Assembly: GCA_965200895.1 (NCBI GenBank)
Contig: CBDAVM010000002.1
Coordinates: 542,315 to 606,314 of the forward strand
Source of the DNA: Vicinamibacterales bacterium
GTDB taxonomy: Bacteria; Acidobacteriota; Vicinamibacteria; Vicinamibacterales; UBA8438
Length of the DNA: 64,000 nucleotides
Direction: 5' to 3'
Position numbers and translations under genes: made by a program. Positions 20,716 through 64,000 of the stretch are shown one piece after another; the stretch's first letter is position 1; each line of letters starts with the position of its first letter. Under the pieces are notes generated by a model. The model ran no database searches, had not been told where the DNA came from, and saw only the letters and a list, made by a program, of their open reading frames with translations.

Positions 20716-21831
20716 ATGGCCCGCACTCCGGCCGATTCCCTGCAGACTACTCCGTTGCACGCCCGGCATCTCGCCCTGGGGGCGCGGATGACTCCCTTCG
20801 GGGGCTGGGACATGCCGGTCCGGTACAGCGGCATAGCCGAGGAGCACCAGGCGGTGCGGGCCGCGGCGGGGCTCTTCGACGTCAGCCACATGGGCGAAGT
20901 GGAGATCGCCGGCGACGATGCGCTCACCGCGGTGCAGCGTATCTCGTCGAACGACGCCCGCAAGCTCGTCCCGGGGCGCGCCCAGTATTCCGCGCTCACG
21001 ACACCGGAAGGCACGATCGTCGACGACCTGCTCGTCTACCAGCTCGCGGTCGGACACTACCTGCTGGTGATCAACGCCGCCAACATCGCGAAGGACGTGG
21101 CCTGGATCCGCAGGCAGATCGGAGGCGCAGGCGATGCGGCGGCAGTCGATGCGAGCAGCCGCTACGCGCTGCTCGCGCTGCAGGGACCGCGTGCTGCAAC
21201 GATCCTGCAGGCCCTTACGGCGGTGGAGGTGGAGGCCATCGAGTACTACGCGTTCGCGACCGGCGAAGTGGCGGGGGTTCGCGCCACGATCTCCCGGACC
21301 GGCTACACCGGCGAGGACGGCTTCGAGCTGTACGTGCCGCCGCGGCAGGCGGAGACGCTCTGGTCGGTCCTGCTCGACGCGGGGGCTGCGCACGGGCTGC
21401 GCCCGGTCGGGCTCGGCGCCCGCGACACGCTGCGGCTGGAGGCAGGACTGCGTCTGTACGGCGCCGACATGGACGAGACGACGACGCTGCTCGAGGCCGG
21501 GCTCGGCTGGACCATCGGATGGGACAAGGAGTCGTTCATCGGCCGCGAGGCGCTGCTCGCGCAGAAGCAGACCGGGCCGAGCCGCAGGCTGGTCGGCTTC
21601 GAGATGCTCGAGCGAGGGATTGCGAGGCATGACCATGCGGTCTATGCCGGCGCCGACCGCGTCGGCCGCGTCACCAGCGGCACCCTGACGCCGTATCTGA
21701 AGAAGTCCATCGGCATGGCGTACGTCCCCGTCGAGTTGGCGGCGCGGGACACGGAGCTCTCCATCGACGTCCGCGGCCGGCGCCTGCGTGCGCGGGTTGT
21801 GCGGATGCCGTTCTACAGGCGCCCGAGGTAG
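20716..21831 (+). CDS. gcvT: Glycine cleavage system T protein
   Basis: FGGWDMPVRY, FDVSHMG, RTGYTGEDGFE and GLGARDTLRLEA motifs. Confidence 0.96.
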   Translation: MARTPADSLQTTPLHARHLALGARMTPFGGWDMPVRYSGIAEEHQAVRAAAGLFDVSHMGEVEIAGDDALTAVQRISSNDARKLVPGRAQYSALTTPEGTIVDDLLVYQLAVGHYLLVINAANIAKDVAWIRRQIGGAGDAAAVDASSRYALLALQGPRAATILQALTAVEVEAIEYYAFATGEVAGVRATISRTGYTGEDGFELYVPPRQAETLWSVLLDAGAAHGLRPVGLGARDTLRLEAGLRLYGADMDETTTLLEAGLGWTIGWDKESFIGREALLAQKQTGPSRRLVGFEMLERGIARHDHAVYAGADRVGRVTSGTLTPYLKKSIGMAYVPVELAARDTELSIDVRGRRLRARVVRMPFYRRPR

Positions 21832-21836
21832 GCGAG

Positions 21837-22217
21837 ATGTATCCGCAGGAACTGAAGTATACGAAGGACCACGAGTGGATCCGGGTGGAGGATGGCCGCG
21901 CCCGCGTCGGCGTTACCGAGTATGCGCAGGAGCAGCTCGGCGACGTCGTCTACGTGGAGTTGCCGGAGGTGGGCAGCGCCTTCGAGCAGGGCGAGCAGTT
22001 CGGATCCATCGAGTCGGTCAAGGCCGTATCGGATCTCTACTGTCCCGTCAGCGGTACGGTGGTCGAGGTCAACGCGGCGCTGGCGGATATCCCGGAGGCC
22101 GTCAACCAGGATCCGCATGCGACCTGGATGATCGTGCTGGACCTGCAGAATCCCGACGACGTCGGCGCGCTGCTGGATGCGGCCGCCTACGGCGAGCTCG
22201 TGGGCGGGGCCGGTTGA
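21837..22217 (+). CDS. gcvH: Glycine cleavage system H protein
   Basis: YTKDHEW, AQEQLGDVVYV and ESVKA (lipoyl Lys). Confidence 0.96.
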   Translation: MYPQELKYTKDHEWIRVEDGRARVGVTEYAQEQLGDVVYVELPEVGSAFEQGEQFGSIESVKAVSDLYCPVSGTVVEVNAALADIPEAVNQDPHATWMIVLDLQNPDDVGALLDAAAYGELVGGAG

Positions 22218-22223
22218 GCCCGC

Positions 22224-25124
<2,901 letters not shown>

Positions 25125-25339: not shown

Positions 25340-26260
25340 TCAGTTCCCTTCGAGCTCGTCGACGATCACCTGGACGCTGTTCCTCAGGCCGGCCGGGGCG
25401 GGGGCGCGATATCCCTCGTAGCCGTTCGGCATCGTCCACGCCGCCGCGATCTCGTCCACGCTGTGGCCCGCGCCGTGCCCGGCGCGCACCGCGGCCAGGA
25501 AGTCGCGGTTGAACGCTGCGTACTCGTGCAGGTCCGCCCACGTCATCTGCGTGCTGTGCCCGGTGATGATGGTGTCGACGCCCGGAATGTTGTCGTGCGC
25601 CTTCTGCAGGCTGTCCGGAATGTCGACGCCGCTGCCGCCGTTGTTGGCGTCAAGGAAGGGCAGGTTCTTGCCCGGGAAGATGTCGCCGGAATGCAGCGTT
25701 CCCAGAGCCGGGAAGACGATCCAGGCGTCGCCGCCGGTGTGCCCGCGACCGAAATGGTAGAGGTCGACCCGGTCGTCGTCGACGCCTATCGACATGCGTT
25801 CCGAGAAGGTCTGCGTCGGCAGCCCGCGGCCCATCGAGTCGGCGAAGACGTTGGCAGGCGGCTCGGTCCGGCCGCTGTAGGCCCGCATCACCTGCATGTT
25901 CGCCGCCGTGACCTCGTGCGTCACGATGTCGACGTTGGCGGGGAACGCGACGTTGCCGCTCACGTGGTCGTGGTGGCTGTGCGTGTTGATGAGCGTGGTC
26001 ACCGGGTTGGCCGTGATCTCGGCGATCGCGTCCAGGATCGACTGGCCCCAGCCGGGGTTCTTGGAGTCGACGACGACGACCCCGTCGCTGGTTACGAAGA
26101 CTGCCGTGTTGCCGCCCCCGCCCTGTCCGCGGAGGACGTACAGGTTGTCCTCGAGTTGTTCGACCTCGATGATCATCGGCGCGTCCTGCGCGGCGACGAT
26201 CGCCAGCGAGAGCGCGCCGAGGCCGACGGTGGCGGCCAGAACGATGGTGCGTCGTGTCAT
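25340..26260 (-). CDS. Secreted MBL-fold metallo-hydrolase (paralogue 1)
   Basis: Signal peptide ending AAQ; THSHHDH, GHTGGD, HSGD and TGH motifs. Confidence 0.88.
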   Translation of the reverse strand: MTRRTIVLAATVGLGALSLAIVAAQDAPMIIEVEQLEDNLYVLRGQGGGGNTAVFVTSDGVVVVDSKNPGWGQSILDAIAEITANPVTTLINTHSHHDHVSGNVAFPANVDIVTHEVTAANMQVMRAYSGRTEPPANVFADSMGRGLPTQTFSERMSIGVDDDRVDLYHFGRGHTGGDAWIVFPALGTLHSGDIFPGKNLPFLDANNGGSGVDIPDSLQKAHDNIPGVDTIITGHSTQMTWADLHEYAAFNRDFLAAVRAGHGAGHSVDEIAAAWTMPNGYEGYRAPAPAGLRNSVQVIVDELEGN

Positions 26261-26334
26261 GACGTTACTCTCCCTCCTGTGCGTGATGCGCGGTCCGGGC
26301 GACCCGAGCTGTCCGGACGCCGCGTGCGCCGTCC

Positions 26335-26429
26335 CTGCCGTTCGTCTCGATGCGGGCGTGCGACCACAGGTGCGTCGCGAGGGCACCCGCCCACTGCCGG
26401 GGCGTTCTGCCGTTCGTCTCGGTGCGGGC
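26335..26429. repeat. Two 23-bp direct repeats with a 72-bp period
   Basis: CTGCCGTTCGTCTCG(A/G)TGCGGGC at 26335-26357 and 26407-26429. Confidence 0.7.
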
Positions 26430-26567: not shown

Positions 26568-27008
26568 GTGGCCGCGCGACACGGAGACTGGCTGCGTCAG
26601 GCCGGCGCCGATCTCCGGCACGCCCGGCGCGCCCGCGAGGACGGCGCGCACGAATGGGCCTGCTTCGCGGCGCAGCAGGCCGCCGAGAAGGCGCTGAAGG
26701 CGGTCCTGCTGCAGCGCGGCGCCGAGGCATGGGGCCATACCGTGACCGCGCTGCTGGGCGCGGTCGCGCCGGAGGACGTGATCGGCGTGGAACTGATGGA
26801 CTGCGCCAGGACGCTCGACAAGCACTACATTCCGACGCGGTATCCCAATGGATTCGACAGCGGCGCGCCGGTGGACTTCTACATGCGGAAGGATTCCGAC
26901 GACGCCATCGCGTGCGCCGGGAAGATCCTCGACGTCGCTCGTCATCATACCGAACAACCAGACGGCGGTCCGGGGGGCGGTCCTCCGGTGGGCGCGCCGG
27001 ATAGCTGA
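26568..27008 (+). CDS. HEPN domain protein
   Basis: WLRQA..DL, ACFAAQQAAEKALKA, WGH and LDKHYIPTRYP motifs. Confidence 0.88.
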   Translation: MAARHGDWLRQAGADLRHARRAREDGAHEWACFAAQQAAEKALKAVLLQRGAEAWGHTVTALLGAVAPEDVIGVELMDCARTLDKHYIPTRYPNGFDSGAPVDFYMRKDSDDAIACAGKILDVARHHTEQPDGGPGGGPPVGAPDS

Positions 27009-27279
27009 CCGCCGGCCCGAGGTGCGCCGCATCGCCTGGTTCGGCTCGCGCGTCAACGGGACGCCGTCGCCGGGAAGCGACGTGGACGTCTGTATCGTGC
27101 TGGCGCGCTCCGACAAGCCGTTCCGTGAGCGGATCGGCGACTACCTGGATCTGCCGGACGGTTTCCCGGTGGGCCTGGATCTCTTTCCCTACACGCTGGT
27201 CGAGCTCGAACGGCTGCAGTCGGAACAGCCGGCGTGGCATCGCGCGCTCACCTCCGGCGTGGACCTGCTGGTGCGCTGA
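26914..27279 (+). CDS. Minimal nucleotidyltransferase (MNT), start uncertain
   Basis: WFGSRVNGTPSPGSDVDV (GS..DxD) and DLFPYT motifs; overlaps the HEPN gene; no clear start codon. Confidence 0.75.
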   Translation, partial: APGRSSTSLVIIPNNQTAVRGAVLRWARRIADRRPEVRRIAWFGSRVNGTPSPGSDVDVCIVLARSDKPFRERIGDYLDLPDGFPVGLDLFPYTLVELERLQSEQPAWHRALTSGVDLLVR

Positions 27280-27309: not shown

Positions 27310-27339
27310 TTGACACTCGTCGGACGTTCCCCGGATACT
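27310..27339 (+). promoter_or_regulatory. Putative sigma70 promoter of triad 1
   Basis: TTGACA-N18-GATACT just upstream of ATG 27345/27360. Confidence 0.45.
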
Positions 27340-27344
27340 ACGGA

Positions 27345-29846
27345 ATGTCGCACCGGGCCATGCCCACACACCGAACGCGGACTCCGGTTGTCCGTCGCGT
27401 CGCACCACTGCTGTGCGGCGCCCTGGCCGCGTTGGTCATCGCGTCGGCGCCGGTTCGGGCGTCGGGACCGGCGGCGTCGGGTTCTGTGCCCGTCGCGCGG
27501 CGGCAGGGCGCGCTCGCCGCCGGCTGGCAGCGGGCGCTGCTCGACCGCTACTGCGTCGCCTGCCACAACGACCGCCTGCGCACCGCCGACCTCGCGCTCG
27601 ACACATACGACGTGACCCGGATCGCCGCCGCGCCGGAGGTCTGGGAGACGGTGGTCCGCAAGTTGCGCGCTGGGGCGATGCCGCCGGCGCCGCGCCCGCG
27701 GCCGGATGCGGCGACCTACGACCGGTTCGTCGGCTGGCTGGAGACCGAGCTGGACCGAGCCGCGGCCGCCGATCCGAACCCGGGACGGACCGAGGCTTTC
27801 CACCGGTTGAACCGCACCGAGTACCACCACGCGGTGCGCGATCTGCTGGATCTGGAGATCGACGTCGCGGAGCTCCTCCCGGCTGACGGCGCCAGCTACG
27901 GCTTCGACAACATCGCCGGGGTGCTCGGCGTCTCGCCGACGCTGCTGGAGCGTTATCTGGCCGCCGCGCGCAGGATCAGCCGCGTGGCGGTGGGACGGCC
28001 GCCGCCCTCGGCGACCGCCGAGGTCTTCCGTCTCGCCAGCGACCTGCCGCAGGACGACCAGGTGGCCGGGATGCCGTTCGGCACCCGCGGCGGCGGCGCG
28101 TTCCGCCACACCTTTCCGCAGGATGCCGACTACGAGGTCCGCATCCGGCTGGCCCGCAACGCCGGGGACAACCTGGCCGTCTTCGAAGTTCCGCACACGC
28201 TGGAGGTGAGCCTGGACGGCGCGCTGGTCCGGACGTTTACCGTCGGCGGTCCGCCGCCCGCGGACGCGCCGCGCGACAGTGACGACTACCGCGCGTGGCG
28301 GGCCCGGCAGCAGACCATCGACCGCAACTGGGCGTTCCGCCTCCCGGTCACGGCGGGACCGCACGACCTGCGGGCGACGTTCGTGCGGAAGACCGCGGCC
28401 TACCCGGAGAGCCTGCGCCAGCCGTACCGGCGGCCCTACACCAGCATCACCGGCGGCGACACCCGGGTGCAGCCGTATCTGGGAAGCGTCACCGTCACCG
28501 GGCCGTTCGCCGCCGCCGGCGGGCCGCCGGTGGAGGAGACTCCGAGCCGCCGGCGCATCTTCGTCTGCCGTCCCGACAGCGCGGCGGGGGGGGAGCGGTC
28601 CGCGTGCGCACACCGGATCCTCTCGAACCTCGCGCGCCGCGCGTGGCGCCGGCCGGTGACCGGCAGCGACCTTGATGTGCTCCTGGGATTCTTCGACGAG
28701 GGACGCCGCGAGGCGGGCTTCGACGCCGGCATCGAGATGGCCCTGCGCTGGCTCCTTGCCAGCCCGGAGTTCGTGCTCCGGGTCGAGCGGGACCCCGTCG
28801 GCGCGGCGCCCGGGATCCCTTATGCGATCAGCGACCTGGAGCTGGCGTCGCGGCTGTCGTTCTTCCTGTGGAGCAGCATCCCGGACGACGAGCTGCTCGA
28901 CCTCGCCGCCGCCCGCCGGCTGCGCGATCCGGCCGTGCGGGAGCAGCAGGTACGCCGGATGCTGGCTGACGAGCGCGCGCGGGCGCTCGTCACGAGCTTC
29001 GCGAGCCAGTGGCTGTATCTGCGGAACGTACCGGCCGTCGTCCCGGACGAGGATCGCTTTCCCGATGTCGGCGAGGGACTGCGGCAGGCGATGCGGCGCG
29101 AGACCGAGCTCTTCGTCGAGAGTGTCTTTCGCGAAGACCGCAGCGTGCTCGATCTGCTGACCGCCGACTACACGTTCGTGAACGAGCGGCTCGCGCGCCA
29201 CTACGACATGCCGGGCGTCTACGGCAGCCACTTCCGGCGGGTTCCCGTGACCCACGCGGCGCGGCGCGGCCTGCTGGGCCACGCCGGCATCCTCGCCGTG
29301 ACGTCGTATCCCAACCGCACGTCGCCGGTGCTGCGCGGCAAGTGGGTGCTGGAGAACCTGCTGGGGACGCCGCCCGCGCTGCCGCCGCCGGACGTGCCGG
29401 CGCTGGAGGAGACCACGGCCGGCGGAGAGACGCTCTCGATGCGCGAGGCCACCGAGCGCCACCGGGCGAACCCGGTCTGCGCGAGCTGCCACCGGCTGAT
29501 GGACCCGCCGGGATTCGCGCTGGAGCAGTTCGATGCGGTCGGTCGTTTCCGCACCCGAACCGCCGCGAACACGCCGATAGACGCCTCGGGCGAGTTGCCC
29601 GACGGCACCCGTTTCGACGGCGCAGCGGGATTGCGCGAGGCGTTGGTGCGCAGGCCGGAGCGCTTCGTCGGCACGCTGACCGAGAAGCTGCTGACCTACG
29701 CGCTCGGGCGTGGCCTGCAGCACCACGACGCGCCGGCGGTCCGCGCCATCGTGCGGGACGCCGCGGAGAACGACTACCGGTTCTCGTCGCTCGTCGTCGG
29801 TATCGTCGAGAGCATGCCGTTCAGGATGCGGAGAGCGGGACCCTGA
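27345..29846 (+). CDS. DUF1592/1588/1587/1585/1595 (PSD/PSCyt) diheme cytochrome c protein, copy 1
   Basis: Signal peptide; CVACH and CASCH; HRLNRTEY, GFDN, ELASRLSFFLWSS, TSPVLRGKW and LLTYALGR motifs. Confidence 0.88.
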   Translation: MSHRAMPTHRTRTPVVRRVAPLLCGALAALVIASAPVRASGPAASGSVPVARRQGALAAGWQRALLDRYCVACHNDRLRTADLALDTYDVTRIAAAPEVWETVVRKLRAGAMPPAPRPRPDAATYDRFVGWLETELDRAAAADPNPGRTEAFHRLNRTEYHHAVRDLLDLEIDVAELLPADGASYGFDNIAGVLGVSPTLLERYLAAARRISRVAVGRPPPSATAEVFRLASDLPQDDQVAGMPFGTRGGGAFRHTFPQDADYEVRIRLARNAGDNLAVFEVPHTLEVSLDGALVRTFTVGGPPPADAPRDSDDYRAWRARQQTIDRNWAFRLPVTAGPHDLRATFVRKTAAYPESLRQPYRRPYTSITGGDTRVQPYLGSVTVTGPFAAAGGPPVEETPSRRRIFVCRPDSAAGGERSACAHRILSNLARRAWRRPVTGSDLDVLLGFFDEGRREAGFDAGIEMALRWLLASPEFVLRVERDPVGAAPGIPYAISDLELASRLSFFLWSSIPDDELLDLAAARRLRDPAVREQQVRRMLADERARALVTSFASQWLYLRNVPAVVPDEDRFPDVGEGLRQAMRRETELFVESVFREDRSVLDLLTADYTFVNERLARHYDMPGVYGSHFRRVPVTHAARRGLLGHAGILAVTSYPNRTSPVLRGKWVLENLLGTPPALPPPDVPALEETTAGGETLSMREATERHRANPVCASCHRLMDPPGFALEQFDAVGRFRTRTAANTPIDASGELPDGTRFDGAAGLREALVRRPERFVGTLTEKLLTYALGRGLQHHDAPAVRAIVRDAAENDYRFSSLVVGIVESMPFRMRRAGP

Positions 29847-29909
29847 TCGTCCTTTCTTCGCCGGTTGTCGGGGACCTGCCGTTCAGATGAGGAGAGCGGG
29901 ATCATGATC
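29815..29909 (+). repeat. Imperfect duplication of the DUF1592 3' end
   Basis: TGCCGTTCAGGATGCGGAGAGCGGGACCCTGATC (29815-29848) versus TGCCGTTCAG-ATGAGGAGAGCGGGATCATGATC (29877-29909). Confidence 0.7.
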
Positions 29910-31259
29910 ATCACCAGGAAGACGCTGCCGCGGCGCACGTTCCTCCGCGGGGTGGGCGCGGCGCTGGCGCTGCCGATGCTGGATGCGATGACCCCGGCAC
30001 TGTCCGGGTTCGGTGCAGTGCGTGCCGCCGAACCCGTGCGCCGGCTGGGCTGGGTCTACCTGCCGAACGGCATGGCGATGGAGTCGTGGACTCCGGCGGC
30101 GAAGACGGCGCTGGAGCTGTCGCCGACGCTCGGCCCGCTTGATGCGTTCCGCGACCGGATGGTCGTGCTCAGCGGACTCGCCCAGGGGCAGGCCGAGGCG
30201 CTCGGCGACGGCAACGGCGAGCACACCCGGGCGACCGCGACGTGGCTGAACGGCGTCCACCCGAAGGAGACCGAGGGGGCCGACGTGCGGGCCGGCATGA
30301 CCGCCGACCAGATTGCGGCGGCGCAGCTCGGCCGGACCACACCGCTGCCGTCGCTGGAGCTGGCCATCGACCGCGACTTCCTGGTCGGCAACTGCGAGAA
30401 CGGCTATTCCTGCATCTACATGAACACCATCGCGTGGCGCGACCCGACGACGCCGCTGCCGATGGAGAACAACCCCCGCGTCGTCTTCGAGCGTCTCTTC
30501 GGCGAGGGCGGCTCGACGACCGACCGGCGGGCCGAGTTCCGTCGCGACCGCAGCATCCTCGACGCCATCGCCGACGACCTCGCCCGGCTGCGGCGCGAGG
30601 TCGGCGCGGGCGATCGCGCCCGCGTGACGCAGTACCTCGACGCGGTGCGCGCCATCGAGCGGCGCATCCAGCTCTCCGAGCAGAGCGACACCGAGCTGCC
30701 GGCCCTCGCCCGGCCCGTCGGCATCCCCGAGTCCTATGCCGAGCACGTCGAATTGATGTTCGACCTGACGGCCCTGGCCTGGCAGGCGGACATCACGCGG
30801 GTCTTCACCTTCATGCTCGGTCGTGAACTCAACGGCCGCGCCTACCCCGAGATCGGCATCCCGGAGTCGCACCACGGGATCTCGCATCACCGCTACGATC
30901 CGCTGAAGCTGGCCCAGCTTGCGAAGATCAACACCTATCACGTGACGCTGTTCCGCCGTTTCCTCGAGACGCTGGCGGCGACGCCGGACGGCGACGGCTC
31001 GCTGCTCGACCACGCGCTGCTGCTCTACGGCGCCTCGCTCAGCGACAGCAACAAGCACCTGCACTACGACCTGCCGCTGATGCTGGTCGGCGGCAGCGGC
31101 GGACACCTGCAGGGGGGGCGCCACCTGCAGTACCCGCGGGACACCCCGATGACCAACCTGCTGGTCAGCCAGCTCGACAAGGCCGGCGTGCGGCTCGACG
31201 ACGGCCTCGGCGACAGCACCGGGCGGCTGAAGGAGCTGGCGCCGCTGGCGGGCGTGTAG
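29904..31259 (+). CDS. DUF1552 (HxxSHH) Tat-exported protein, copy 1
   Basis: PRRTFLRG twin-arginine motif; YLPNG, CENGYSC, NPRVVFERLFG, HHGISHH and DGSLLD motifs. Confidence 0.88.
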   Translation: MIITRKTLPRRTFLRGVGAALALPMLDAMTPALSGFGAVRAAEPVRRLGWVYLPNGMAMESWTPAAKTALELSPTLGPLDAFRDRMVVLSGLAQGQAEALGDGNGEHTRATATWLNGVHPKETEGADVRAGMTADQIAAAQLGRTTPLPSLELAIDRDFLVGNCENGYSCIYMNTIAWRDPTTPLPMENNPRVVFERLFGEGGSTTDRRAEFRRDRSILDAIADDLARLRREVGAGDRARVTQYLDAVRAIERRIQLSEQSDTELPALARPVGIPESYAEHVELMFDLTALAWQADITRVFTFMLGRELNGRAYPEIGIPESHHGISHHRYDPLKLAQLAKINTYHVTLFRRFLETLAATPDGDGSLLDHALLLYGASLSDSNKHLHYDLPLMLVGGSGGHLQGGRHLQYPRDTPMTNLLVSQLDKAGVRLDDGLGDSTGRLKELAPLAGV

Positions 31260-31403
31260 GATACGTCGGCTGTCGTGGCAAGTGGGCACGGTTCACACGC
31301 CGCCAGGATTTTCGGCGCCGCCATGGCGTTGTTGGGAGCCGACAGCCGGGGAAGTCAGCAGGAAGGACGTTCGGAATCAATGCTGTCGTAGTGTGGCAAA
31401 TGC

Positions 31404-32756
31404 ATGATGCATGACCGGCTGCCGGCGGACCGGGCGCGGAGTTTCCTCGGTGCGGTGGTGTTCCTGTCGGCGTGGGTTGCGGTGGCGGTCGCGCAGCCGG
31501 CCGACGATGCGGCGCCGCTGCACCGGGCCGCGCACGCGGGCGAAGCCGTGGAAGTGGCGCGGCTGCTCGACGGCGGCGCCGATCCCGATGCGACGACCCG
31601 CCTCGGCGTGACGCCGCTGGCGCTGGCCGCGGGCGGCGGACATGCGGCGGCCGTGGAGGTGCTGCTTACCGCCGGGGCGGACCCGAACCGGGCCTCGCCA
31701 CAGGGCGAGACGCCGCTGATGATCGCCGCGCGAACCGGCGTCGTCGACAGCGTCGGGGCCCTGCTGCGGCGCGGCGCCCGCGTCGACGCGCGGGAGGGGT
31801 GGCGCGGCCAGACGGCGTTGATGTGGGCCGCGGCCGAGGGCCACCCGGCGGTCTTCGCGCCCCTGGTGGCGTCGGGAGCGGACGTCGATGCGCGTTCCGA
31901 CGGCGGTTTCACACCGCTCGCGTTCGCGGTCCGCGCGGGCCACGGCGATGCCGTCGAGGCGCTGGTGGCCGCCGGTGCGGATGTGGACCGCACGTTGCCG
32001 GACGGCACCAGCCCGCTGCACCTGGCGGTGATCAACGCGAACTACGACGTGGCGCTGCAGCTTCTGGCGCACGGCGCCGATCCGACCGCGGCCGAGCCGG
32101 GCTGGACGCCGCTGCACCAGCTCGTCTGGACCCGCCGCCCGAACCGGCACTACAACAATCCGGCCGCGTTCCCGACGGGAACCGTCTCCGACCTGGAGCT
32201 GGCCCGCGCGCTCGTTGCCCACGGGGCCGACGTGAACGCCCGCCAGACGGCGGAGCCGCGCGACGGCTACCGCAACATGCTGAACCGCAGCGGCGCAACA
32301 CCGTTCCTGCTCGCCGCCAAGGCCGTCGATCTGGAGATGATGCATCTGCTGCTCGAACTCGGCGCCGACCCGCTGCTGGCGAACGAGGACGGCACCACCG
32401 CGCTGCTCGTGGCGGCCGGCGTCGGCATCTGGTCGGCGAGCGAGAGCCCCGGCAGCGCCGCCGAGGCGCTCGATGCCGTGAAGCTGATGATCGAACTCGG
32501 CGATCCGATCTCCACCGTCGACGACAACGGGGACGCGGCGCTGCACGGCGCCGTGATGCGCGGCTCGCCGGAGCTGGTCCTCTACCTGCTGGAGCAGGGC
32601 GCGGCGCTGAACCCGGTCAACGAGCGCGGCTGGACGCCCCTGACCATCGCCCAGGGCATCTTCTACGCCAACCTCGGGCGGCGCTGGCCGGACATGGAGG
32701 CGTTGCTGCGGGAACTGGGCGCGACCTCGCCGACGGCTCCCGAGCCTCCGCGGTAG
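31404..32756 (+). CDS. Secreted ankyrin-repeat protein, copy 1
   Basis: Signal peptide (AVAVAQ); many G-x-TPL/TAL...GAD ankyrin units. Confidence 0.9.
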   Translation: MMHDRLPADRARSFLGAVVFLSAWVAVAVAQPADDAAPLHRAAHAGEAVEVARLLDGGADPDATTRLGVTPLALAAGGGHAAAVEVLLTAGADPNRASPQGETPLMIAARTGVVDSVGALLRRGARVDAREGWRGQTALMWAAAEGHPAVFAPLVASGADVDARSDGGFTPLAFAVRAGHGDAVEALVAAGADVDRTLPDGTSPLHLAVINANYDVALQLLAHGADPTAAEPGWTPLHQLVWTRRPNRHYNNPAAFPTGTVSDLELARALVAHGADVNARQTAEPRDGYRNMLNRSGATPFLLAAKAVDLEMMHLLLELGADPLLANEDGTTALLVAAGVGIWSASESPGSAAEALDAVKLMIELGDPISTVDDNGDAALHGAVMRGSPELVLYLLEQGAALNPVNERGWTPLTIAQGIFYANLGRRWPDMEALLRELGATSPTAPEPPR

Positions 32757-52307: not shown

Positions 52308-53245
52308 GACGGATGAACCGGGGGCGAGGGACGAAGCGGGCGACGGCGCTCGGCGCGCTGCTGTTCATCGGAGCAGTGTCGCTGGCGGTCACCGAGGCGG
52401 AACAGGGCGGGCCGGTCGTCGAGGTCGAGCGCATCAAGGACAACCTCTACGTGCTGCGCGGCGGCGGCGGCAACTCGGCCGCGTTCGTGACCAGCGACGG
52501 CGTCGTGCTCGTCGACACGAAGGTCGCCGGCTGGGGGCAGCCGCTGATCGACCGCATCGCGGAGCTGACGCCGAACCCGGTGACGACCATCATCAACACC
52601 CATGCGCACTTCGACCATGTGAGCGGCAACGTGGAGTTCCCGGCGTCGGTCGAGGTGGTGGCGCACACCGCCGCGCGGCGGCTGATGGAGGAGTGGAACC
52701 CGGTCACCGGCTTCCCGGGCGACTTCCCGGACGTCTTCGCGACCAGCGGCGGCCAGGGTCTGCCGACCCGGACCTACGACGACCGCCTGACCCTGGGCAG
52801 CGGCGACGACCAGGTCGACCTCTACCACTTCGGCCGCGGCCACACCGGCGGCGACACCTGGGTGGTGTTCCCGTCCCTGCGGGTCATGCACGCCGGCGAC
52901 ATGTTCCCCGGCCGGCAGGTGCCGATCATGGACGCGAGCAACGGCGGGAGCGGCGTCGACTACGCACGGACGCTGCGCAACGCCCACGAGACGGTCACCG
53001 ACATCGACCTCATCATCACCGGCCACAGCACCCAGATGACGCCGGGCGACCTGGAACAGATGGCCGACTTCGTCGAGACGTTTGTCGCCGCGGTGCGCGC
53101 CGGGCGCAACGCGGGGCAGTCGGCGGCGGCGATCGCGGCCGGCTGGCAGGTGCCGTCGCGGTTCGCGGGTTTCGGCAGTCCGCCGCCCGCGCGGTTGCAG
53201 GCCTACGTGCAGGTGATCCTCGATGAACTCGATGTCCGGGAGTAG
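52304..53245 (+). CDS. Secreted MBL-fold metallo-hydrolase (paralogue 3)
   Basis: ATGA overlap with the HupE/UreJ gene; THAHFDH, GHTGGD and TGH motifs; closely resembles paralogue 1. Confidence 0.88.
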   Translation: MRRMNRGRGTKRATALGALLFIGAVSLAVTEAEQGGPVVEVERIKDNLYVLRGGGGNSAAFVTSDGVVLVDTKVAGWGQPLIDRIAELTPNPVTTIINTHAHFDHVSGNVEFPASVEVVAHTAARRLMEEWNPVTGFPGDFPDVFATSGGQGLPTRTYDDRLTLGSGDDQVDLYHFGRGHTGGDTWVVFPSLRVMHAGDMFPGRQVPIMDASNGGSGVDYARTLRNAHETVTDIDLIITGHSTQMTPGDLEQMADFVETFVAAVRAGRNAGQSAAAIAAGWQVPSRFAGFGSPPPARLQAYVQVILDELDVRE

Positions 53246-53975: not shown

Positions 53976-54953
53976 ATGGTGGCGAAGCGCGCGTGGATGG
54001 GATGCATGGCGGTGGCACTGGCGGTCGTGGCGAGCGTCGGGATTTCCGCCCAGGAGGAGTCGGGGCGCGCGGTGGTGACGGAGGCGACCATCTCCTTCAC
54101 CGAGGGGCCGACCGTCGACGCCGACGGTGCCGTCTACTTCACGGACCTGCGCGTCGTCGGGCGCATCCTGAAGATGGACACCGACGGGACCGTCACCACG
54201 TACCGCGAGCCGAGCCACCGCGCCAACGGCCTCATCTTCGACAGCGAGTGGCGACTGCTGGCGTGCGAAGGGGGCAACGGCGACGACGTCCTGCCGCGCA
54301 TCACCCGGACCAACATCGAGACCGGCGAGATCGAGGTCCTCGCCGACCACTTCGAAGGGCAGCAGCTTCACCAGCCGAACGACCTGACCATCGACGGACA
54401 GGGACGCATCTACTTCACCGACCGACCGGGGCCCGTCGTCACGCCTGAGCAGACCGGCGTGCATGGTGTGTATCGCATCGACCCCGACGGCAGCATCGCG
54501 CGTATCCTCACCGAACCGGACATCGAGCGGCCCAACGGCATCGTGATATCGCCCGACGACGCGACTCTCTACCTGATCGAGACCGCGCAGCAGGAGGGGG
54601 GCGCGCGCATGATCCGCGCCTACGACCTCGCCGAGGATGGCACCGCGAGCAACATGCGCGTCTTTCACGACTTCTATCCGGGCCGCAGCGGCGACGGGAT
54701 GACCATCGACAGCGAGGGCAACCTCTACGTCGCGGCCGGGCTCAACCGGTTGCGGGGCACGAGCGAGACGCTGGACACGGTGGCCGGGGTGCACGTCTTC
54801 TCACCGTCCGGCGAGCTCCTTGAGCACATCCCCATCCACGAGGACACGATCACCAACGTCGCCTTCGGGGGCGACGACCTGCGGACGCTGTACATCACGG
54901 CCGGCAAGACGCTCTTCAGCGTGCGGACCGACGTCACCGGCACGCGGCGCTGA
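53976..54953 (+). CDS. SMP-30/gluconolactonase family secreted protein
   Basis: FTEGP, ANGL, PNDL, PNGI, DGMTIDSEGNLYV and TNVAFGG motifs; RBS GGGAGG. Confidence 0.9.
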   Translation: MVAKRAWMGCMAVALAVVASVGISAQEESGRAVVTEATISFTEGPTVDADGAVYFTDLRVVGRILKMDTDGTVTTYREPSHRANGLIFDSEWRLLACEGGNGDDVLPRITRTNIETGEIEVLADHFEGQQLHQPNDLTIDGQGRIYFTDRPGPVVTPEQTGVHGVYRIDPDGSIARILTEPDIERPNGIVISPDDATLYLIETAQQEGGARMIRAYDLAEDGTASNMRVFHDFYPGRSGDGMTIDSEGNLYVAAGLNRLRGTSETLDTVAGVHVFSPSGELLEHIPIHEDTITNVAFGGDDLRTLYITAGKTLFSVRTDVTGTRR

Positions 54954-55459: not shown

Positions 55460-57946
55460 ATGTCGAGGATCCTGACCGCTTGCGTGATCGGGCTCGGTCT
55501 TACCGCCGCCGGCGTCGGTCACCACGCCGCGCACGCCGCCACGCATCAGGACGTCCGCCCCGTCGCCGCCGCGCCGTCGGCGCGTCCCCCGGCTCGGGAT
55601 GCGTTGGACGCCGGGTCGGTGCGGCCGGTCCTGCGCCGCTACTGCGTCGGCTGTCACAACGCGCGACTGCGGACGGCCGGTCTGGCGCTGGACACGATGG
55701 ACCCGGCTCGGGTGGGTGACCATCCGGCGGCGTGGGAAAAGGTCGTGCGCAAGCTGCGGACCGGCGCGATGCCGCCGGCTGGACGTCGGCGGCCCGACGC
55801 GGCCACCTACGAGGCCGTGGCTGCCGGTCTCGAAACGGCCCTGGACCAGGCGGCGGCGTCGGATCCCGATCCCGGCCGCACCACCGTTCATCGCCTGAAC
55901 CGGCGGGAGTACGCGAACGCGGTGCGCGACCTGCTCGCACTGGAGATCGACGCGACCAGGCTGTTGCCTGCCGACAACGCGGATCTCGGCTTCGACAACA
56001 TGGCGGACATCCTGTCCGTGTCGCCGGCGCTGCTCGACCGCTACCTCTTCGCGGCGCGCCGGATCAGTCGCCTGGCCGTGGGCGATTCGACGATGGAGCC
56101 GACGACCGAGACCCATGTCGTCCCCGCGATGCGGTTCCAGGACCAGCGCATGGACGAGGACCTGCCGTTCGGCTCCCGCGGCGGCATCGCGATCCGTCAC
56201 AACTTTCCGCTCGACGCGGAGTATGACGTCAGTATCCGGCTGCAACGGCAGCTCTACGACTACGTGCGCGGCCTGCAGAACCGGCAGCAGCTCGAGGTGC
56301 GCCTCGACGGCGAGCGGGTGGCGCTGTTCGACATCGGCGGCGCGCCCGGAACGCCGCCGCCGCGGACGTTCGCGGGCGCCGTGCTCGGCGACCGGACCTG
56401 GGAGGAGTACACGCTGCACGCCGACGAGCACCTCTCGGTCCGCATCTCCGCGAAGGCCGGGCCGCGCGTGCTCGGCGTTTCCTTCGTGCAGGGCCGTTCG
56501 GAGCGCGACGGGGTGCTGCAGCCACGGGCGACCGGGAAGGTGCTGGCCATCGCCGAGCGCTGGAGCTCCCCGTCGGAAGCGCCGGAGGCGGCGGTCGACC
56601 AGGTGAGCATCGCCGGTCCGTTCAACGCCACCGGCGCCGGTGAGACCCCGAGTCGGGAGCGGCTGTTCGTGTGCCGGCCCGCGCCTGGGGCAGGCGACGA
56701 GGCGTGTGCGCGGGAGATTCTCGCCACCGTCGCTCAGCGGGCCTTCCGACGGCCGGTGACGGAGGCCGACCTGGGCACGCTGCTGGCATTCTTCGCGGCG
56801 GGGCGGCGGACGGGCGGTTTCGAGACCGGGGTCCAGCGGGCCCTGGAAAGCATCCTGGTCGATCCGGAGTTCCTGTTCCGCGTCGAGCGCGACCCGGTGG
56901 ACACCAGGCCCGGCACGATACACCCGATCAGCGACCTGGAGCTGGCCTCGCGGCTCTCGTTCTTTCTGTGGAGCAGCATCCCGGATGACGAGCTGCTCGA
57001 CATCGCCGCCCGCGGCGAGCTGCGCGATACGGACGTGCTGCAGCGGCAGATCCGGCGCATGCTGGCCGATCCCCGCGCGCAGGCCCTCGTCGACGGCTTT
57101 GCTGTGCAGTGGCTGGCCCTGCGAACCCTGTCGAGCGTCGTGCCGACGCCGGAGCTCTTCCCGGAGTGGGACGACAACCTGCGCGAGGCGTTCGGGCGCG
57201 AGACGGAGCTGTTCGTGGCCAGCCAGATCCGCGAGGATCGCAGCGTCCTGGACCTCGTTCGCGCGGACTACACGTTCGCCAACGAGCGGCTGGCCCGGCA
57301 CTATGGAATTCCGAACGTCTACGGCAGCCGGTTCCGGCGGGTGACGTTCCCCGACGGCGTACGCGGCGGCCTGCTCGGACACGGCAGTATCCTGACCGTC
57401 ACGTCCTATCCCACGCGGACCTCTCCGGTGCTGCGGGGGCACTGGCTGCTGTCACACCTGCTCGGCGCGCCGCCGCCGCCACCGCCGCCGGACGTGCCGG
57501 CGCTGCCGGACCGGGGAGAGGGCGGCAGACCGGCCTCGGTGCGCGAGCGGCTGGAGCAGCACCGCGAGAACCCGGTCTGCGCGAACTGTCATGCGCCGAT
57601 GGATCCGCTCGGCTTCGCCCTGGAACACTTCGATGCCATCGGGAAGTGGCGCGGCACCGGCGAGGGCGGCGGACCGATCGACGCATCGGGCGTTTTCCCC
57701 GACGGCACCGGTTTCGAAGGACTGGCGGGACTCAGGAGGGTCCTGCTGAGCCGTCAGGAGCAGTTCGTCCGGACCGTCACCGAGAAGCTCGCCACGTACG
57801 CGCTCGGCCGCGGGCTGGAGCATTACGACATGCCTGCTGTCCGCGCCATCATTCGCGACGCGGGTGCGGACGACTACACGTGGTCCTCCCTGGTGCTCGG
57901 GATCGTCGAGAGCACACCGTTTCAGATGCGGAGATCAGAATCATGA
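55460..57946 (+). CDS. DUF1592/1588/1587/1585/1595 diheme cytochrome c protein, copy 2
   Basis: Signal peptide; CVGCH and CANCH; same conserved blocks as copy 1. Confidence 0.88.
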   Translation: MSRILTACVIGLGLTAAGVGHHAAHAATHQDVRPVAAAPSARPPARDALDAGSVRPVLRRYCVGCHNARLRTAGLALDTMDPARVGDHPAAWEKVVRKLRTGAMPPAGRRRPDAATYEAVAAGLETALDQAAASDPDPGRTTVHRLNRREYANAVRDLLALEIDATRLLPADNADLGFDNMADILSVSPALLDRYLFAARRISRLAVGDSTMEPTTETHVVPAMRFQDQRMDEDLPFGSRGGIAIRHNFPLDAEYDVSIRLQRQLYDYVRGLQNRQQLEVRLDGERVALFDIGGAPGTPPPRTFAGAVLGDRTWEEYTLHADEHLSVRISAKAGPRVLGVSFVQGRSERDGVLQPRATGKVLAIAERWSSPSEAPEAAVDQVSIAGPFNATGAGETPSRERLFVCRPAPGAGDEACAREILATVAQRAFRRPVTEADLGTLLAFFAAGRRTGGFETGVQRALESILVDPEFLFRVERDPVDTRPGTIHPISDLELASRLSFFLWSSIPDDELLDIAARGELRDTDVLQRQIRRMLADPRAQALVDGFAVQWLALRTLSSVVPTPELFPEWDDNLREAFGRETELFVASQIREDRSVLDLVRADYTFANERLARHYGIPNVYGSRFRRVTFPDGVRGGLLGHGSILTVTSYPTRTSPVLRGHWLLSHLLGAPPPPPPPDVPALPDRGEGGRPASVRERLEQHRENPVCANCHAPMDPLGFALEHFDAIGKWRGTGEGGGPIDASGVFPDGTGFEGLAGLRRVLLSRQEQFVRTVTEKLATYALGRGLEHYDMPAVRAIIRDAGADDYTWSSLVLGIVESTPFQMRRSES

Positions 57947-59277
57947 TGATCAGCAGGAAAGCTCTCCCCCGCCGCACGGTACTCCGCGGGCTCGGCGCCG
58001 CGGTGGCGTTGCCGCTGCTCGACGGCATGGTGCCCGCGCTGACCGCCCTCGGCCGAACCGCCGCGAGGCCGGTCAGGCGCCTGGGGGTCGTCTACGTCCC
58101 GAACGGGATCGTGATGGAGCAGTGGACTCCCGCGACAGCGGGCGCCGGATTCGAGATCACGCCGATCCTGCAGCCGCTGGAGCGGTTCCGGGACCGTCTG
58201 CTGGTGGTGTCGGGGCTCAGCAACAAGGGGCCGGACAACATCCACGAGACGGGAGCCACGAGCTTCCTGACCGGTGTGCCCCCGAAGCGCACCCAGGGTT
58301 CCCAGCTCGAGGCCGGGGTGTCGATGGATCAGCAGGTGGCGCGGGAAGCGGGCCGGCACACGCAGCTCGCCTCGCTGGAACTGGCCCTGGAGTCGGGCGA
58401 CGATGTGGGGACATGCGGCGGCGGATACACCTGTGCGTACACCAACACCATCTGCTGGCTGAGCGCAACGACACCGTTGCCGATGGAAACCAATCCACGG
58501 ACGGTATTCGAACGGCTGCTGGGCGACACCGGCGGCACGGATGCCGCCGCCCGGCTGGCGCGCATCGAACAGAACCGCAGCCTGCTGGACGCGGTGACGG
58601 ACAAGGTGGCCGCGTTGGGCCGTGACCTCGGGCCGCGGGACCGGCTGAAGCTCGGCGAGTACCTCGAGGCGGTGCGTGACATCGAGCGCCGGATCCAGAA
58701 GGCCGAGGCGCAGGTCGACCAGGAGCTGCCCGAGATCGCGCCGCCGTTGGGCGTTCCCGCCGCCTTCGACGAACACGCGAAGCTGATGTTCGATCTGCAG
58801 GTGCTGGCCTATCAGACCGATCTGACCCGCGTCATCAGCTTCATGATCAGCCGCGAGTACAGCGGCCGTACCTACCCGCAGATCGGCGTGCCGGAGGCGC
58901 ATCACCCGACGTCGCACCACCAGCAGGATCCGGACAAGCTGGAGAAGCTCACCCGGATCAACACGTACCACACGTCGCTGCTCGCCTACTACCTCGACAA
59001 GCTGCGGGCCACCCCCGACGGCGACGGCTCGCTGCTCGACCACGTGGCCGTGCTGTACGGCGCGGGCCTCAGCGACGGCAACCGGCATTCTTCCGAGAAC
59101 CTGCCGATCCTGCTCGCGGGCGGCGGCGCGGGGACGCTCCACTGCGGACAGCATCTGCAGTGTCCGGACCCGACACCGATGTCCAACCTGCACGTGACGC
59201 TGATGGACAGGCTCGGGGTCCCGGTCGAGCACTTCGGGGTGAGCACGGGTGAGATTCAGGAGCTCTCGGGCGTCTAG
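57943..59277 (+). CDS. DUF1552 (HxxSHH) Tat-exported protein, copy 2
   Basis: ATGA overlap with DUF1592; PRRTVLRG, CGGGYTC, HHPTSHH and DGSLLD motifs. Confidence 0.88.
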   Translation: MMISRKALPRRTVLRGLGAAVALPLLDGMVPALTALGRTAARPVRRLGVVYVPNGIVMEQWTPATAGAGFEITPILQPLERFRDRLLVVSGLSNKGPDNIHETGATSFLTGVPPKRTQGSQLEAGVSMDQQVAREAGRHTQLASLELALESGDDVGTCGGGYTCAYTNTICWLSATTPLPMETNPRTVFERLLGDTGGTDAAARLARIEQNRSLLDAVTDKVAALGRDLGPRDRLKLGEYLEAVRDIERRIQKAEAQVDQELPEIAPPLGVPAAFDEHAKLMFDLQVLAYQTDLTRVISFMISREYSGRTYPQIGVPEAHHPTSHHQQDPDKLEKLTRINTYHTSLLAYYLDKLRATPDGDGSLLDHVAVLYGAGLSDGNRHSSENLPILLAGGGAGTLHCGQHLQCPDPTPMSNLHVTLMDRLGVPVEHFGVSTGEIQELSGV

Positions 59278-59356
59278 GAGCTTGCGCCGCAGAACGCAGC
59301 GAAGCGAAATGCTGAGGCGCAAGCTCATGGAGCGGGGGGGATGGGCCGAACGCCGA
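59274..59356. mobile_element. Second, right-truncated copy of the MITE-like element
   Basis: CTAGGAGCTTGCGCCGCAGAACGCAGCGAAGCGAAATGCTGAGGCGCAAG... is nearly identical to 41916-41999; its TAG is the DUF1552 stop codon. Confidence 0.65.
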
Positions 59357-59466
59357 GCCCGCGCGGCGTTTCGGGGCGCTGGGAGTAACGGAGTCAGTTC
59401 CGCAGGTGCGCCGGGCCTGCGAAGATCGGCGCCCGAGGTGATCTGACGGAGACAGGGGAGTCCAAC

Positions 59467-60993
59467 ATGCGCGGCGTTGACATGAGCCGATACGCGGTCG
59501 CCGCGTGTCTCGGTCCGTTGCTGGCTGCTTCGGTCGCAGCGGAGCAGCCGGATCTGCGCCTCATCGACGCGGTCCGGGACGGCGATCGACGCGTCGTGCG
59601 AGCGCTGCTGGAGGAGCCGGTCGACGTGAATGCGCGCCAACCCGACGGGGCGACGGCGCTGCACTGGGCGGCCTACCTCGACGATCTGGATACGGCGCAA
59701 CTGCTCATCGCGGCGGGCGCGGTGGCCGATGCTTCGAACGAGCTCGGAGCCACACCGCTCTACCTGGCGTGCGAGAACGGCAGCGCCGCGCTGGTGCGCA
59801 TGCTGCTGGCTGCCGGGGCAACGGCCGAAGCGGTCCTGCCGAGCGGCGAGACCGCCCTGATGACGGCGTCCCGCACCGGAAGCATCGGCGCGGTGGAGGC
59901 GCTGCTTGCCCACGGCGCCGATGTGCAGGCGCGAGAGTCTACCGAGGGACAGACCGCCCTCATGTGGGCCGTCTCACAGCGACACCCGAAGGTTGTCGAA
60001 GCCCTGCTGAACGCGGGCGCGGACGTGCATGCGCGTTCGCGCGTCCGGCCCGTGGTGACGGCGCATTCCCCCCGCACGAGCAGCGAGGGCGCAGTGGTCG
60101 TCGTGGACGAGGGCGGGTACTCGCCGCTGCTGTTTGCGGCGCGCAGCGGCGACGCCGCATCCGCCGAGCTGCTGCTGGCGGCGGGCGCCGATCCGAACGA
60201 CACCGCGCCGGCCGGAACCAGTGCACTCGTCGTGGCGGCCCACAGCGGCCATGGCGCCCTGGCTGCGTTGTTGCTCCAGGCGGGCGCCGATCCGAACGTG
60301 ACGGAAGCCGGCTACACACCCCTGCACGCGGCGGTCCTCAGGGAGGATGCGGCGCTGGTCCAGGCGCTGCTGGCCCACGGCTCGGATCCGAACGCCCGTC
60401 TGCGGCGCGGCACCCGCTACGCGCGGCAGGGCAAGCTGTTCTCTCTGGACATGGCCTGGACCGGGGCGACGCCGTTCTTTCTCGCAGCCAAGTTCGGCCG
60501 GGGCGACATCATGCGCCGGTTGGCCGAGAGCGGGGCGGACCCGCACGCCGGCCTTGCTGGCGGCGTGACGCCGCTGATGGCCGCCGCCGGCATGCTCACC
60601 CGGGGGTTCGGTCGGGCCGGCAAGGACCGTCGGGGGCGCGAGATGGACTCGGCCGAAATGGAACTTGCCCTCACGCAGGATCCGGACAGACGGAGCGTGA
60701 TGGTCAGCGGCATCGATGCCGTGAAGGTGGCGGTCGAGTTGGGCGCCGACGTCAACGCCGCCAGCGCGACCGGCGACACCGCCCTGCACATGGCTGCCTT
60801 CCACGGCTTCCGGACTGTGGTTCGCTACCTCGTGAGCCGCGGGGCGCGGCTGGACGCCGTCAACAACGGTGGGGAAACGCCGTTGGACCGGGCGCTTGCC
60901 GCACGGGCTCCGGCGCGGCTGACCCGCAGCCTCACCGACTACAGCGACACCGGCACCGCGGACCTGTTGCGCGCCCTGGGTGCGGCCGACTAG
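59467..60993 (+). CDS. Secreted ankyrin-repeat protein, copy 2
   Basis: Signal peptide; many GATALH/GETAL/GYTPLH ankyrin units; RBS GGGGAG. Confidence 0.9.
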   Translation: MRGVDMSRYAVAACLGPLLAASVAAEQPDLRLIDAVRDGDRRVVRALLEEPVDVNARQPDGATALHWAAYLDDLDTAQLLIAAGAVADASNELGATPLYLACENGSAALVRMLLAAGATAEAVLPSGETALMTASRTGSIGAVEALLAHGADVQARESTEGQTALMWAVSQRHPKVVEALLNAGADVHARSRVRPVVTAHSPRTSSEGAVVVVDEGGYSPLLFAARSGDAASAELLLAAGADPNDTAPAGTSALVVAAHSGHGALAALLLQAGADPNVTEAGYTPLHAAVLREDAALVQALLAHGSDPNARLRRGTRYARQGKLFSLDMAWTGATPFFLAAKFGRGDIMRRLAESGADPHAGLAGGVTPLMAAAGMLTRGFGRAGKDRRGREMDSAEMELALTQDPDRRSVMVSGIDAVKVAVELGADVNAASATGDTALHMAAFHGFRTVVRYLVSRGARLDAVNNGGETPLDRALAARAPARLTRSLTDYSDTGTADLLRALGAAD

Positions 60994-63900: not shown

Positions 63901-64000
63901 CGTGCCCGCAGACCTCGTCCACGGTGACGCTGCACTCGCCCTTGGCGCGCCGCCGCCGGCCGCGGGTGATGAGCCGGCAGAGGTTGGCGTAGCCGGCGCG
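60998..64000 (-). CDS. dnaE2: Error-prone DNA polymerase DnaE2 (5' end beyond the window)
   Basis: [37 protein letters not shown]-type, [19 protein letters not shown] motifs and the diagnostic C-terminal SRDFH. Confidence 0.95.

Follow-up and report, generated by a model that had tools for sequence, protein, structure and literature searches.

A stretch of 64,000 nucleotides from the genome of a Vicinamibacterales bacterium (GenBank assembly GCA_965200895.1, contig CBDAVM010000002.1, positions 542,315 to 606,314 of the forward strand; hereafter the window) carries two copies of a set of three genes, which encode a likely two-heme cytochrome of the DUF1592 family (A), a DUF1552 protein (B), and an ankyrin repeat protein (K), and raises the question of what an ankyrin gene is doing beside this pair. 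The A-B pair has itself gone unexplained since its domains were defined, and its function is given as unknown in He 2017 (PMC5615132), as a preliminary description of the window had also held. That description, made from the sequence alone, reported the same A-B-K order at 27345-32756 and 55460-60993 and took the ankyrin protein for a dedicated partner of a periplasmic redox complex rather than a host effector. Both triads are present on the forward strand, and we find that K is very probably the dedicated cognate partner of its A-B pair. By their identities (56% for A, 53% for B, and 38% for K) the two copies are old paralogs. In both copies of A, Pfam matches above cut-off were to PSD3, PSD5, PSD4 (DUF1592), PSCyt3, and PSD2, with a weak match to PSCyt1 as well at the N terminus; B matches HXXSHH (DUF1552) and K matches ankyrin alone. 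The gap between B and K is 145 bp in copy 1 and 190 bp in copy 2, with no terminator-like site in either.

The preliminary description had suggested counting how often the ankyrin gene co-localizes with the pair. The genome holds 38 A-B units, with the stop codon of A overlapping the start of B in 21 of them, and 36 K-family genes, not counting one duplicate and one caspase-ankyrin fusion. K lies within 1.5 kb of A-B in 30 of the 38 units. When positions were drawn at random 10,000 times, the average was 2.3 such units and the highest count 10, so the linkage is far beyond chance. The observation that the ankyrin gene directly follows B is true of both window copies and does not extend to the genome, where 18 units have K downstream, 12 have it upstream (co-oriented in five and divergent in seven), and eight lack it. 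What we find most telling is that, through this rearrangement, the cognate K kept its place beside A-B. A lies directly upstream of 38 of about 40 B genes, and the matches to A, B, and K together span about 205 kb, or 4.1% of the genome, with fragments and the duplicate counted in. Ankyrin genes make up about 1% of genes here, and the K family accounts for 36 of the 37 that are full length, 30 of them beside an A-B unit; outside the family, the caspase fusion and two remnants were the only ankyrin sequences found. The fusion protein (genome contig C1:2075490-2077457), in which ankyrin repeats accompany an N-terminal domain that appears caspase-like by eye, is the sole full-length ankyrin protein outside the K family.

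The same coupling is seen across genomes. We counted both families in 31 genomes of the order. A genome has between 0 and 52 matches to DUF1552 (25-52 within this genus) and between 0 and at least 49 to K, and the two counts correlate at r = 0.998, or at rho = 0.98 when each of 17 genera is represented by a single genome; because these genomes are kin and not independent, the figures show coupling and carry no valid p value. All six genomes without B also have no K. In a set of 80 related loci, nearly all titled Vicinamibacterales or Acidobacteria, K follows B in 77; in the other three the contig breaks off no more than about 640 bp from B. Beyond these groups, one of four plasmids examined (out of 16 records with a B relative), from a soil Novosphingobium, carries an A-B-ankyrin triad with a divergent K at 221 bits. 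A contig titled Dehalococcoidia (L062), possibly a binning error, carries a triad as well, with 84% identity between its B and that of copy 1.

Within this genome the three genes have also diverged together. For 29 triads the tree distances correlate (Mantel) at 0.80 for A and B, 0.78 for A and K, and 0.72 for B and K; the correlation is still 0.62-0.69 when a long-branch clade is removed and 0.57-0.63 in the 11 units with an upstream K alone. With the linkage, the copy-number coupling, and the conservation of the K loops described below, this bears out the earlier view that the ankyrin protein is a dedicated partner and not likely a host effector.

The partnership has a boundary within the B family, which we examined in a sample of 70 B genes (from 60 further, hand-picked stretches, four plasmid loci, and one metagenome locus). 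K sits beside 52 of 62 B genes that have a C-x5-C loop and beside none of the eight that lack it, an association that has a single origin and two independent pairs only, too few for a test of correlated change. In the B phylogeny K occurs only within the C-x5-C clade, and it is therefore a clade-specific addition to an older two-gene A-B system. A divergent subtype without K and with a short A (L030, C1:703546-709273, and L038:8986-14519) is common to this genome and Sphingobium; a hypothetical gene of its own lies upstream, and the Sphingobium version also has genes for cytochromes c and b.

K itself has a signal-like hydrophobic stretch before its first domain in 34 of 35 cases, with one further K giving no anchor (a hydrophobicity rule, not SignalP, was used throughout). 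No polar residue is invariant among 114 K sequences, so K is unlikely to be catalytic itself. Its C-terminal half contains four loop inserts, which in seven of seven ortholog groups (set by B identity, with 2-21 members each) are better conserved among orthologs than the scaffold (0.62-0.96 versus 0.51-0.74) and are far less conserved among paralogs (0.10-0.15 versus 0.28-0.49), where they are nearly unrelated; the inserts were chosen for their variability among paralogs, so only the ortholog figure is an independent test. Judged by conservation, this is the pattern of specificity-setting surfaces, as expected of a specificity subunit. One K (L014:10265-12223) is fused to a C-terminal cytochrome c; all 13 genus members share this arrangement, and the same threshold gave no such fusion in eight other families. 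A C-terminal Cys tail, CxSC, is present in 33 of 48 K proteins of phylum-wide loci, and a Cys pair ends 7 of the 36 K proteins of this genome; these tails could equally well point to a role in maturation. Taken as a whole, K probably binds A or B, and we slightly favor a lasting subunit over a factor acting in maturation only.

B is predicted to adopt an alkaline-phosphatase/sulfatase-type fold (predicted local distance difference test score of 91), and the 50 fold matches listed for it are all hydrolases, transferases, or their relatives, including YejM/PbgA, which are non-catalytic or atypical members of the fold. Both window copies have the twin-arginine motif (RRTxL), the C-x5-C, and the HHxxSHH noted in the preliminary description, and a twin-arginine consensus followed by a hydrophobic stretch is found in 37 of 37 full-length B proteins. 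C-x5-C, which had been called conserved, is present in 78% of 99 family members; it is clade-specific and so not a universal metal ligand, and of the His/Cys metal center proposed earlier a likely His site is what stands. Nor does export by the twin-arginine translocation (Tat) pathway, previously taken as a sign of a loaded cofactor, show a redox cofactor by itself: sulfatases and PhoX are Tat substrates too. The twin-arginine signal of B1 (29904-29999) is far more conserved than usual signal peptides, with Leu-23, Pro-24, Leu-26, Asp-27, and Pro-31 invariant in 30 paralogs, and is partly ordered in the model, which suggests that it may be retained or bound.

Four histidines, His-107, His-324, His-328, and His-385, are conserved at 99-100% in B, which thus likely holds a candidate His-rich single-metal site beside a cytochrome. 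His-107 aligns with the sulfatase nucleophile, and the sulfatase metal positions (Asp-Asp and Asp-Asn/His) align to Pro-54-Asn-55 and Ser-378-Leu-379 (alignment probability 22.7%). The segments beside His-107 and His-385 are conserved among orthologs and paralog-specific, like the inserts of K. B does not look like a sulfatase by motif: C/S-x-P-x-R is replaced by His-x-R-x-x at the aligned place, and there is no match to Pfam Sulfatase.

In A1 a signal peptide is followed by a class I cytochrome c domain, PSD3, a middle region (residues 218-400), PSD5, PSD4/DUF1592, PSCyt3, and PSD2. The signal peptide and two CxxCH sites of the preliminary description are found in both window copies, and all 37 A proteins examined have a signal-like stretch ahead of the first domain. 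The N-terminal domain satisfies the class I pattern (CxxCH with a Met about 40 residues on), so that Cys-70, Cys-73, His-74, and Met-112 likely form a His/Met site of this class; its profile match to cytochrome c551 is weak (E = 0.48), and a Pfam cytochrome match there reaches cut-off in A2 only. The second site is likely also heme c, and an extra pair, Cys-408 and Cys-421, is kept in 33 of 35 paralogs. The middle region is the most variable part of A among paralogs and resembles clusters of the carbohydrate-binding module (CBM) family CBM60 at lead level only (below 0.9), with no CBM found by Pfam in the middle domains. Genes for cytochrome c maturation (Ccm) and TatC are present in the genome. 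In the K-less Sphingobium operon A is without its first cytochrome domain, and cytochrome c and cytochrome b genes then follow. Together with the invariant His/Met motif of A and the fusion of K to cytochrome c, this upholds the redox link that had been proposed for the complex.

How does the triad compare with what is known? The nearest system is the group III pair of He 2017, in which a PSCyt3/PSD4 cytochrome gene adjoins a DUF1552 gene; it shares the domain set of A (PSD3, PSD5, PSD4, PSCyt3, and PSD2), the adjacency, and the many copies per genome, and the triad differs in adding a third, ankyrin gene that is limited to one C-x5-C clade. The triad is thus a three-component version of a known, unexplained pair, with the ankyrin gene as what is added. 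The word ankyrin does not occur in the eight supplement files searched of that paper (its main text and one scanned file lay outside the search), and literature searches, with subscription journals and bioRxiv supplements outside their reach, found no ankyrin partner of DUF1592-DUF1552. The same searches returned no paper with both DUF1592 and DUF1552 and nothing on ankyrin together with Vicinamibacter and cytochrome c, or with sponge and Vicinamibacter; one stress-regulated DUF1552 gene of R. baltica appears in a table (PMC2754498). In the related pairing of PSCyt2/PSD1 (DUF1549/DUF1553) with DUF1501, the DUF1501 protein can be aligned to B (P 92%), and three of its histidines fall at the same positions as in B, that of the nucleophile included, whereas the domains of its cytochrome partner differ from those of A. 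From sulfatases and nucleotide pyrophosphatases B differs in having His for the nucleophile, in the loss of the metal aspartates and of CxPxR, and in its obligate cytochrome partner. For K there are precedents in katB-ankB (Howell 2000), where AnkB is needed for full KatB activity (PMC12754779), and in the ankyrin homolog beside the flavocytochrome c of Chromatium vinosum (Dolata 1993). Like K, for which export and heme partner are deduced from sequence, these are periplasmic ankyrin proteins encoded with a heme enzyme; the enzymes are unrelated, and K is long (450-550 residues), has paralog-specific inserts, and forms a 36-member family with one cytochrome c fusion.

The direct results, namely the anatomy, linkage, co-divergence, copy-number coupling, conservation patterns, and predicted fold of B, lead us to a working model that we put forward tentatively, at somewhat less than an even chance, in which the triads encode cognate periplasmic oxidoreductase complexes with a His-metal site in B, the hemes in A, and K as a bound specificity subunit. 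Tat would carry folded B to the periplasm, the Sec pathway would export A and K, and heme would be attached by Ccm. His-107, His-324, His-328, and His-385, perhaps with His-329 or Asp-381, would bind one redox metal (iron, copper, or manganese), placed where the hydrolases of the superfamily have their nucleophile and metal site. A small organic substrate would be oxidized at this metal, and electrons would pass from B to the C-terminal site of A, on to its N-terminal His/Met heme, and from there to the cytochrome c pool. The C-terminal loops of K would dock on the cognate A-B, next to the paralog-specific pocket segments of B and the variable middle domain of A, and about 30 paralogs would give about 30 substrate specificities. 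That the chemistry of B is oxidation-reduction we consider rather probable. We are doubtful of the widest version of the model, a new periplasmic oxidoreductase class in which a phosphatase/sulfatase scaffold would be rewired to a four-His redox metal site coupled to c-type hemes, an ankyrin subunit with swappable loops, resembling a designed ankyrin repeat protein, would set specificity, the 25-50 copies (4% of this genome) would be a main Vicinamibacterales route for oxidizing diverse dissolved organics, and the supposed host-mimicking ankyrins would be enzyme subunits.

Several observations weigh against the oxidoreductase model. Eight of the 38 units have no K, and six K-family genes adjoin no intact A-B unit; one whole subclade within the C-x5-C clade is without K, and no ankyrin gene was found at the plasmid loci of Sphingobium, Chondrinema, and Planctomyces (three of the four examined). 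A-B pairs without K exist, and K is therefore not essential to the family. Tree congruence, which had been proposed as a check, held for the distances and not for much of the branching: the well-supported splits common to all three trees number only three, nearest neighbors agree in 10-13 of 29 triads, and operon co-duplication alone would also yield tree agreement. The mapping of His-107 onto sulfatase is a weak match (hhalign P 22.7%, E = 9e-4), and a direct alignment of B with the nucleotide pyrophosphatase profile gave P 0.1%. No Met is obvious at the second site of A, which could be a zinc site. Finally, a genome-wide neighborhood count found no substrate-suggesting gene family enriched near the units.

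Four other explanations have to be set beside it. K might act in maturation only, with each cognate K holding A or B transiently during the loading of heme, metal, or disulfides; this we think unlikely, despite the AnkB precedent, the Cys tails, the restriction of K to the C-x5-C clade of B, and its dispensability in other B clades. One generic chaperone could serve all of the units, yet K is kept near 1:1 and with paralog-specific loops, the fusion to cytochrome c is easier to reconcile with a working subunit, and the link to the C-x5-C loop goes back to that single origin. K might also be a eukaryote-like protein for interaction with a host, carried along with A-B through their joint duplication, a reading prompted by the enrichment of ankyrin genes in sponge-associated Luteitaleia (0.55% of genes), interpreted as eukaryote-like host factors in Robbins 2021 (PMC8163846). 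We regard it as very improbable, given that the linkage persists through rearrangement with co-divergence of K with A and B, that the number of K genes follows that of B and is zero in the six genomes without B, that a triad occurs in a soil Novosphingobium, that K has a Sec-type signal, and that all secretion-system effector models score far below cut-off on K (best about 118 bits, with cut-offs of 450-1400).

The remaining two concern the chemistry of B. As all of the fold matches listed are to hydrolases, transferases, or relatives and a His stands at the nucleophile position, B could be a hydrolase or group transferase working through a phospho- or sulfo-histidine at His-107, with the hemes of A activating it or sensing redox and K as an adaptor; PSCyt genes lie near sulfatases and carbohydrate-binding modules in He 2017, and the CBM60 likeness of the A middle domain points the same way. 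The metal aspartates that would activate a nucleophile and the CxPxR arginine are replaced in B, however, the two-heme partner is near-obligate, and the A middle domains contain no Pfam CBM, so this reading is quite unlikely in our judgment. Slightly less likely again is a non-catalytic complex, in which the triads would be periplasmic receptors for a ligand or metal, or electron-relay scaffolds, and B would bind without turnover. The loss of the nucleophile, the presence of YejM/PbgA among the fold matches listed, and the lack of enriched pathway genes nearby are compatible with such a role; no transporter or sensor family is enriched near the units either, and four near-invariant histidines with two cytochrome motifs fit catalysis better.

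To the known pair these results add the near 1:1 copy-number coupling, the paralog-specific loops, the cytochrome fusion, the clade limit of K, and a bearing on ankyrin counts in symbionts, and they offer testable parts in the four candidate metal histidines, the two heme motifs, the third protein, and the defined loops. Ankyrin counts of Luteitaleia and other Vicinamibacteria are cited in sponge-microbiome genomics as host factors; the ankyrin load is likewise high in the present member of that class, where it is almost wholly K, and across the order K follows the number of DUF1552 genes. Redox catalysis on an alkaline-phosphatase fold, if true, would to our knowledge be new chemistry for the superfamily.

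Table. The two triads of the window and sites within copy 1 (window coordinates)
Feature	Position	Strand	Description
A1	27345-29846	+	833 residues; possible alternative start, ATG at 27360
A1 heme site 1	27552-27680	+	C70-x2-C73-H74 with M112 as likely distal ligand; invariant in 35/35 paralogs
A1 site 2	29460-29492	+	H706-x5-C712-x2-C715-H716; invariant in 35/35 paralogs
B1	29904-31259	+	451 residues; DUF1552, twin-arginine signal, predicted alkaline-phosphatase-superfamily fold
B1 His107	30222-30224	+	At sulfatase Cys/formylglycine nucleophile position; 99% conserved; helix start in model
B1 C164-x5-C170 loop	30393-30413	+	Marks the clade to which K is confined
B1 HHxxSHH	30870-30890	+	H324 and H328 invariant
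B1 His385	31056-31058	+	Aligned to conserved His of DUF1501 RDH motif
K1	31404-32756	+	450 residues; ankyrin repeats, signal-like N terminus
K1 loop region	32127-32687	+	Four inserts: residues 242-259, 284-295, 341-350, 418-428
A2	55460-57946	+	Second copy; two CxxCH
B2	57943-59277	+	Second copy; start overlaps A2 stop (ATGA)
K2	59467-60993	+	Second copy; loop inserts unlike those of K1
Sigma-70-like promoter	27310-27339	+	Directly 5' of A1; consensus match only; 1 found versus 0.1 expected

The consensus scan that gave the promoter before A1 found no sigma-70-like promoter before copy 2. A gene for a secreted metallo-beta-lactamase-fold protein lies within four genes upstream of each window triad, at 25340-26386 on the reverse strand and at about 52310-53245 on the forward strand; genome-wide, this 16-copy family is not enriched near triads. 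Immediately before copy 2 lies a gene for a secreted SMP-30/gluconolactonase (53976-54953); a single case, it would fit hydrolysis of an oxidation product. Directly before copy 1 is a HEPN and nucleotidyltransferase gene pair (26568-27279), and a second such pair accompanies another triad on contig C2 (1074473-1075196). The window further contains gcvT, gcvH, and gcvP of glycine cleavage (20716-25124) and, converging on K2, a gene for a DnaE2-like polymerase (60998-64000), all recognized from their translations.

Elsewhere in the genome some units are decaying: one A is frameshifted, several B genes are truncated or frameshifted, and in one case B stands alone with no A (L015:2074-4597, L028:3346-4287, L032:2191-2730, L035:884-2200, and L036:2665-4086). 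The start of contig C1 (6144-15150) duplicates the end of C2 (2077333-2086339) over ~9 kb at 99.99%, which is probably an assembly overlap. Other large periplasmic families include about 70 proteins resembling pyrroloquinoline quinone quinoproteins, labeled by eye, and there is a 75-member secreted family without annotation here. The genome also has nine DUF1501 matches, and CxxCH occurs in 143 of its 3868 called genes.

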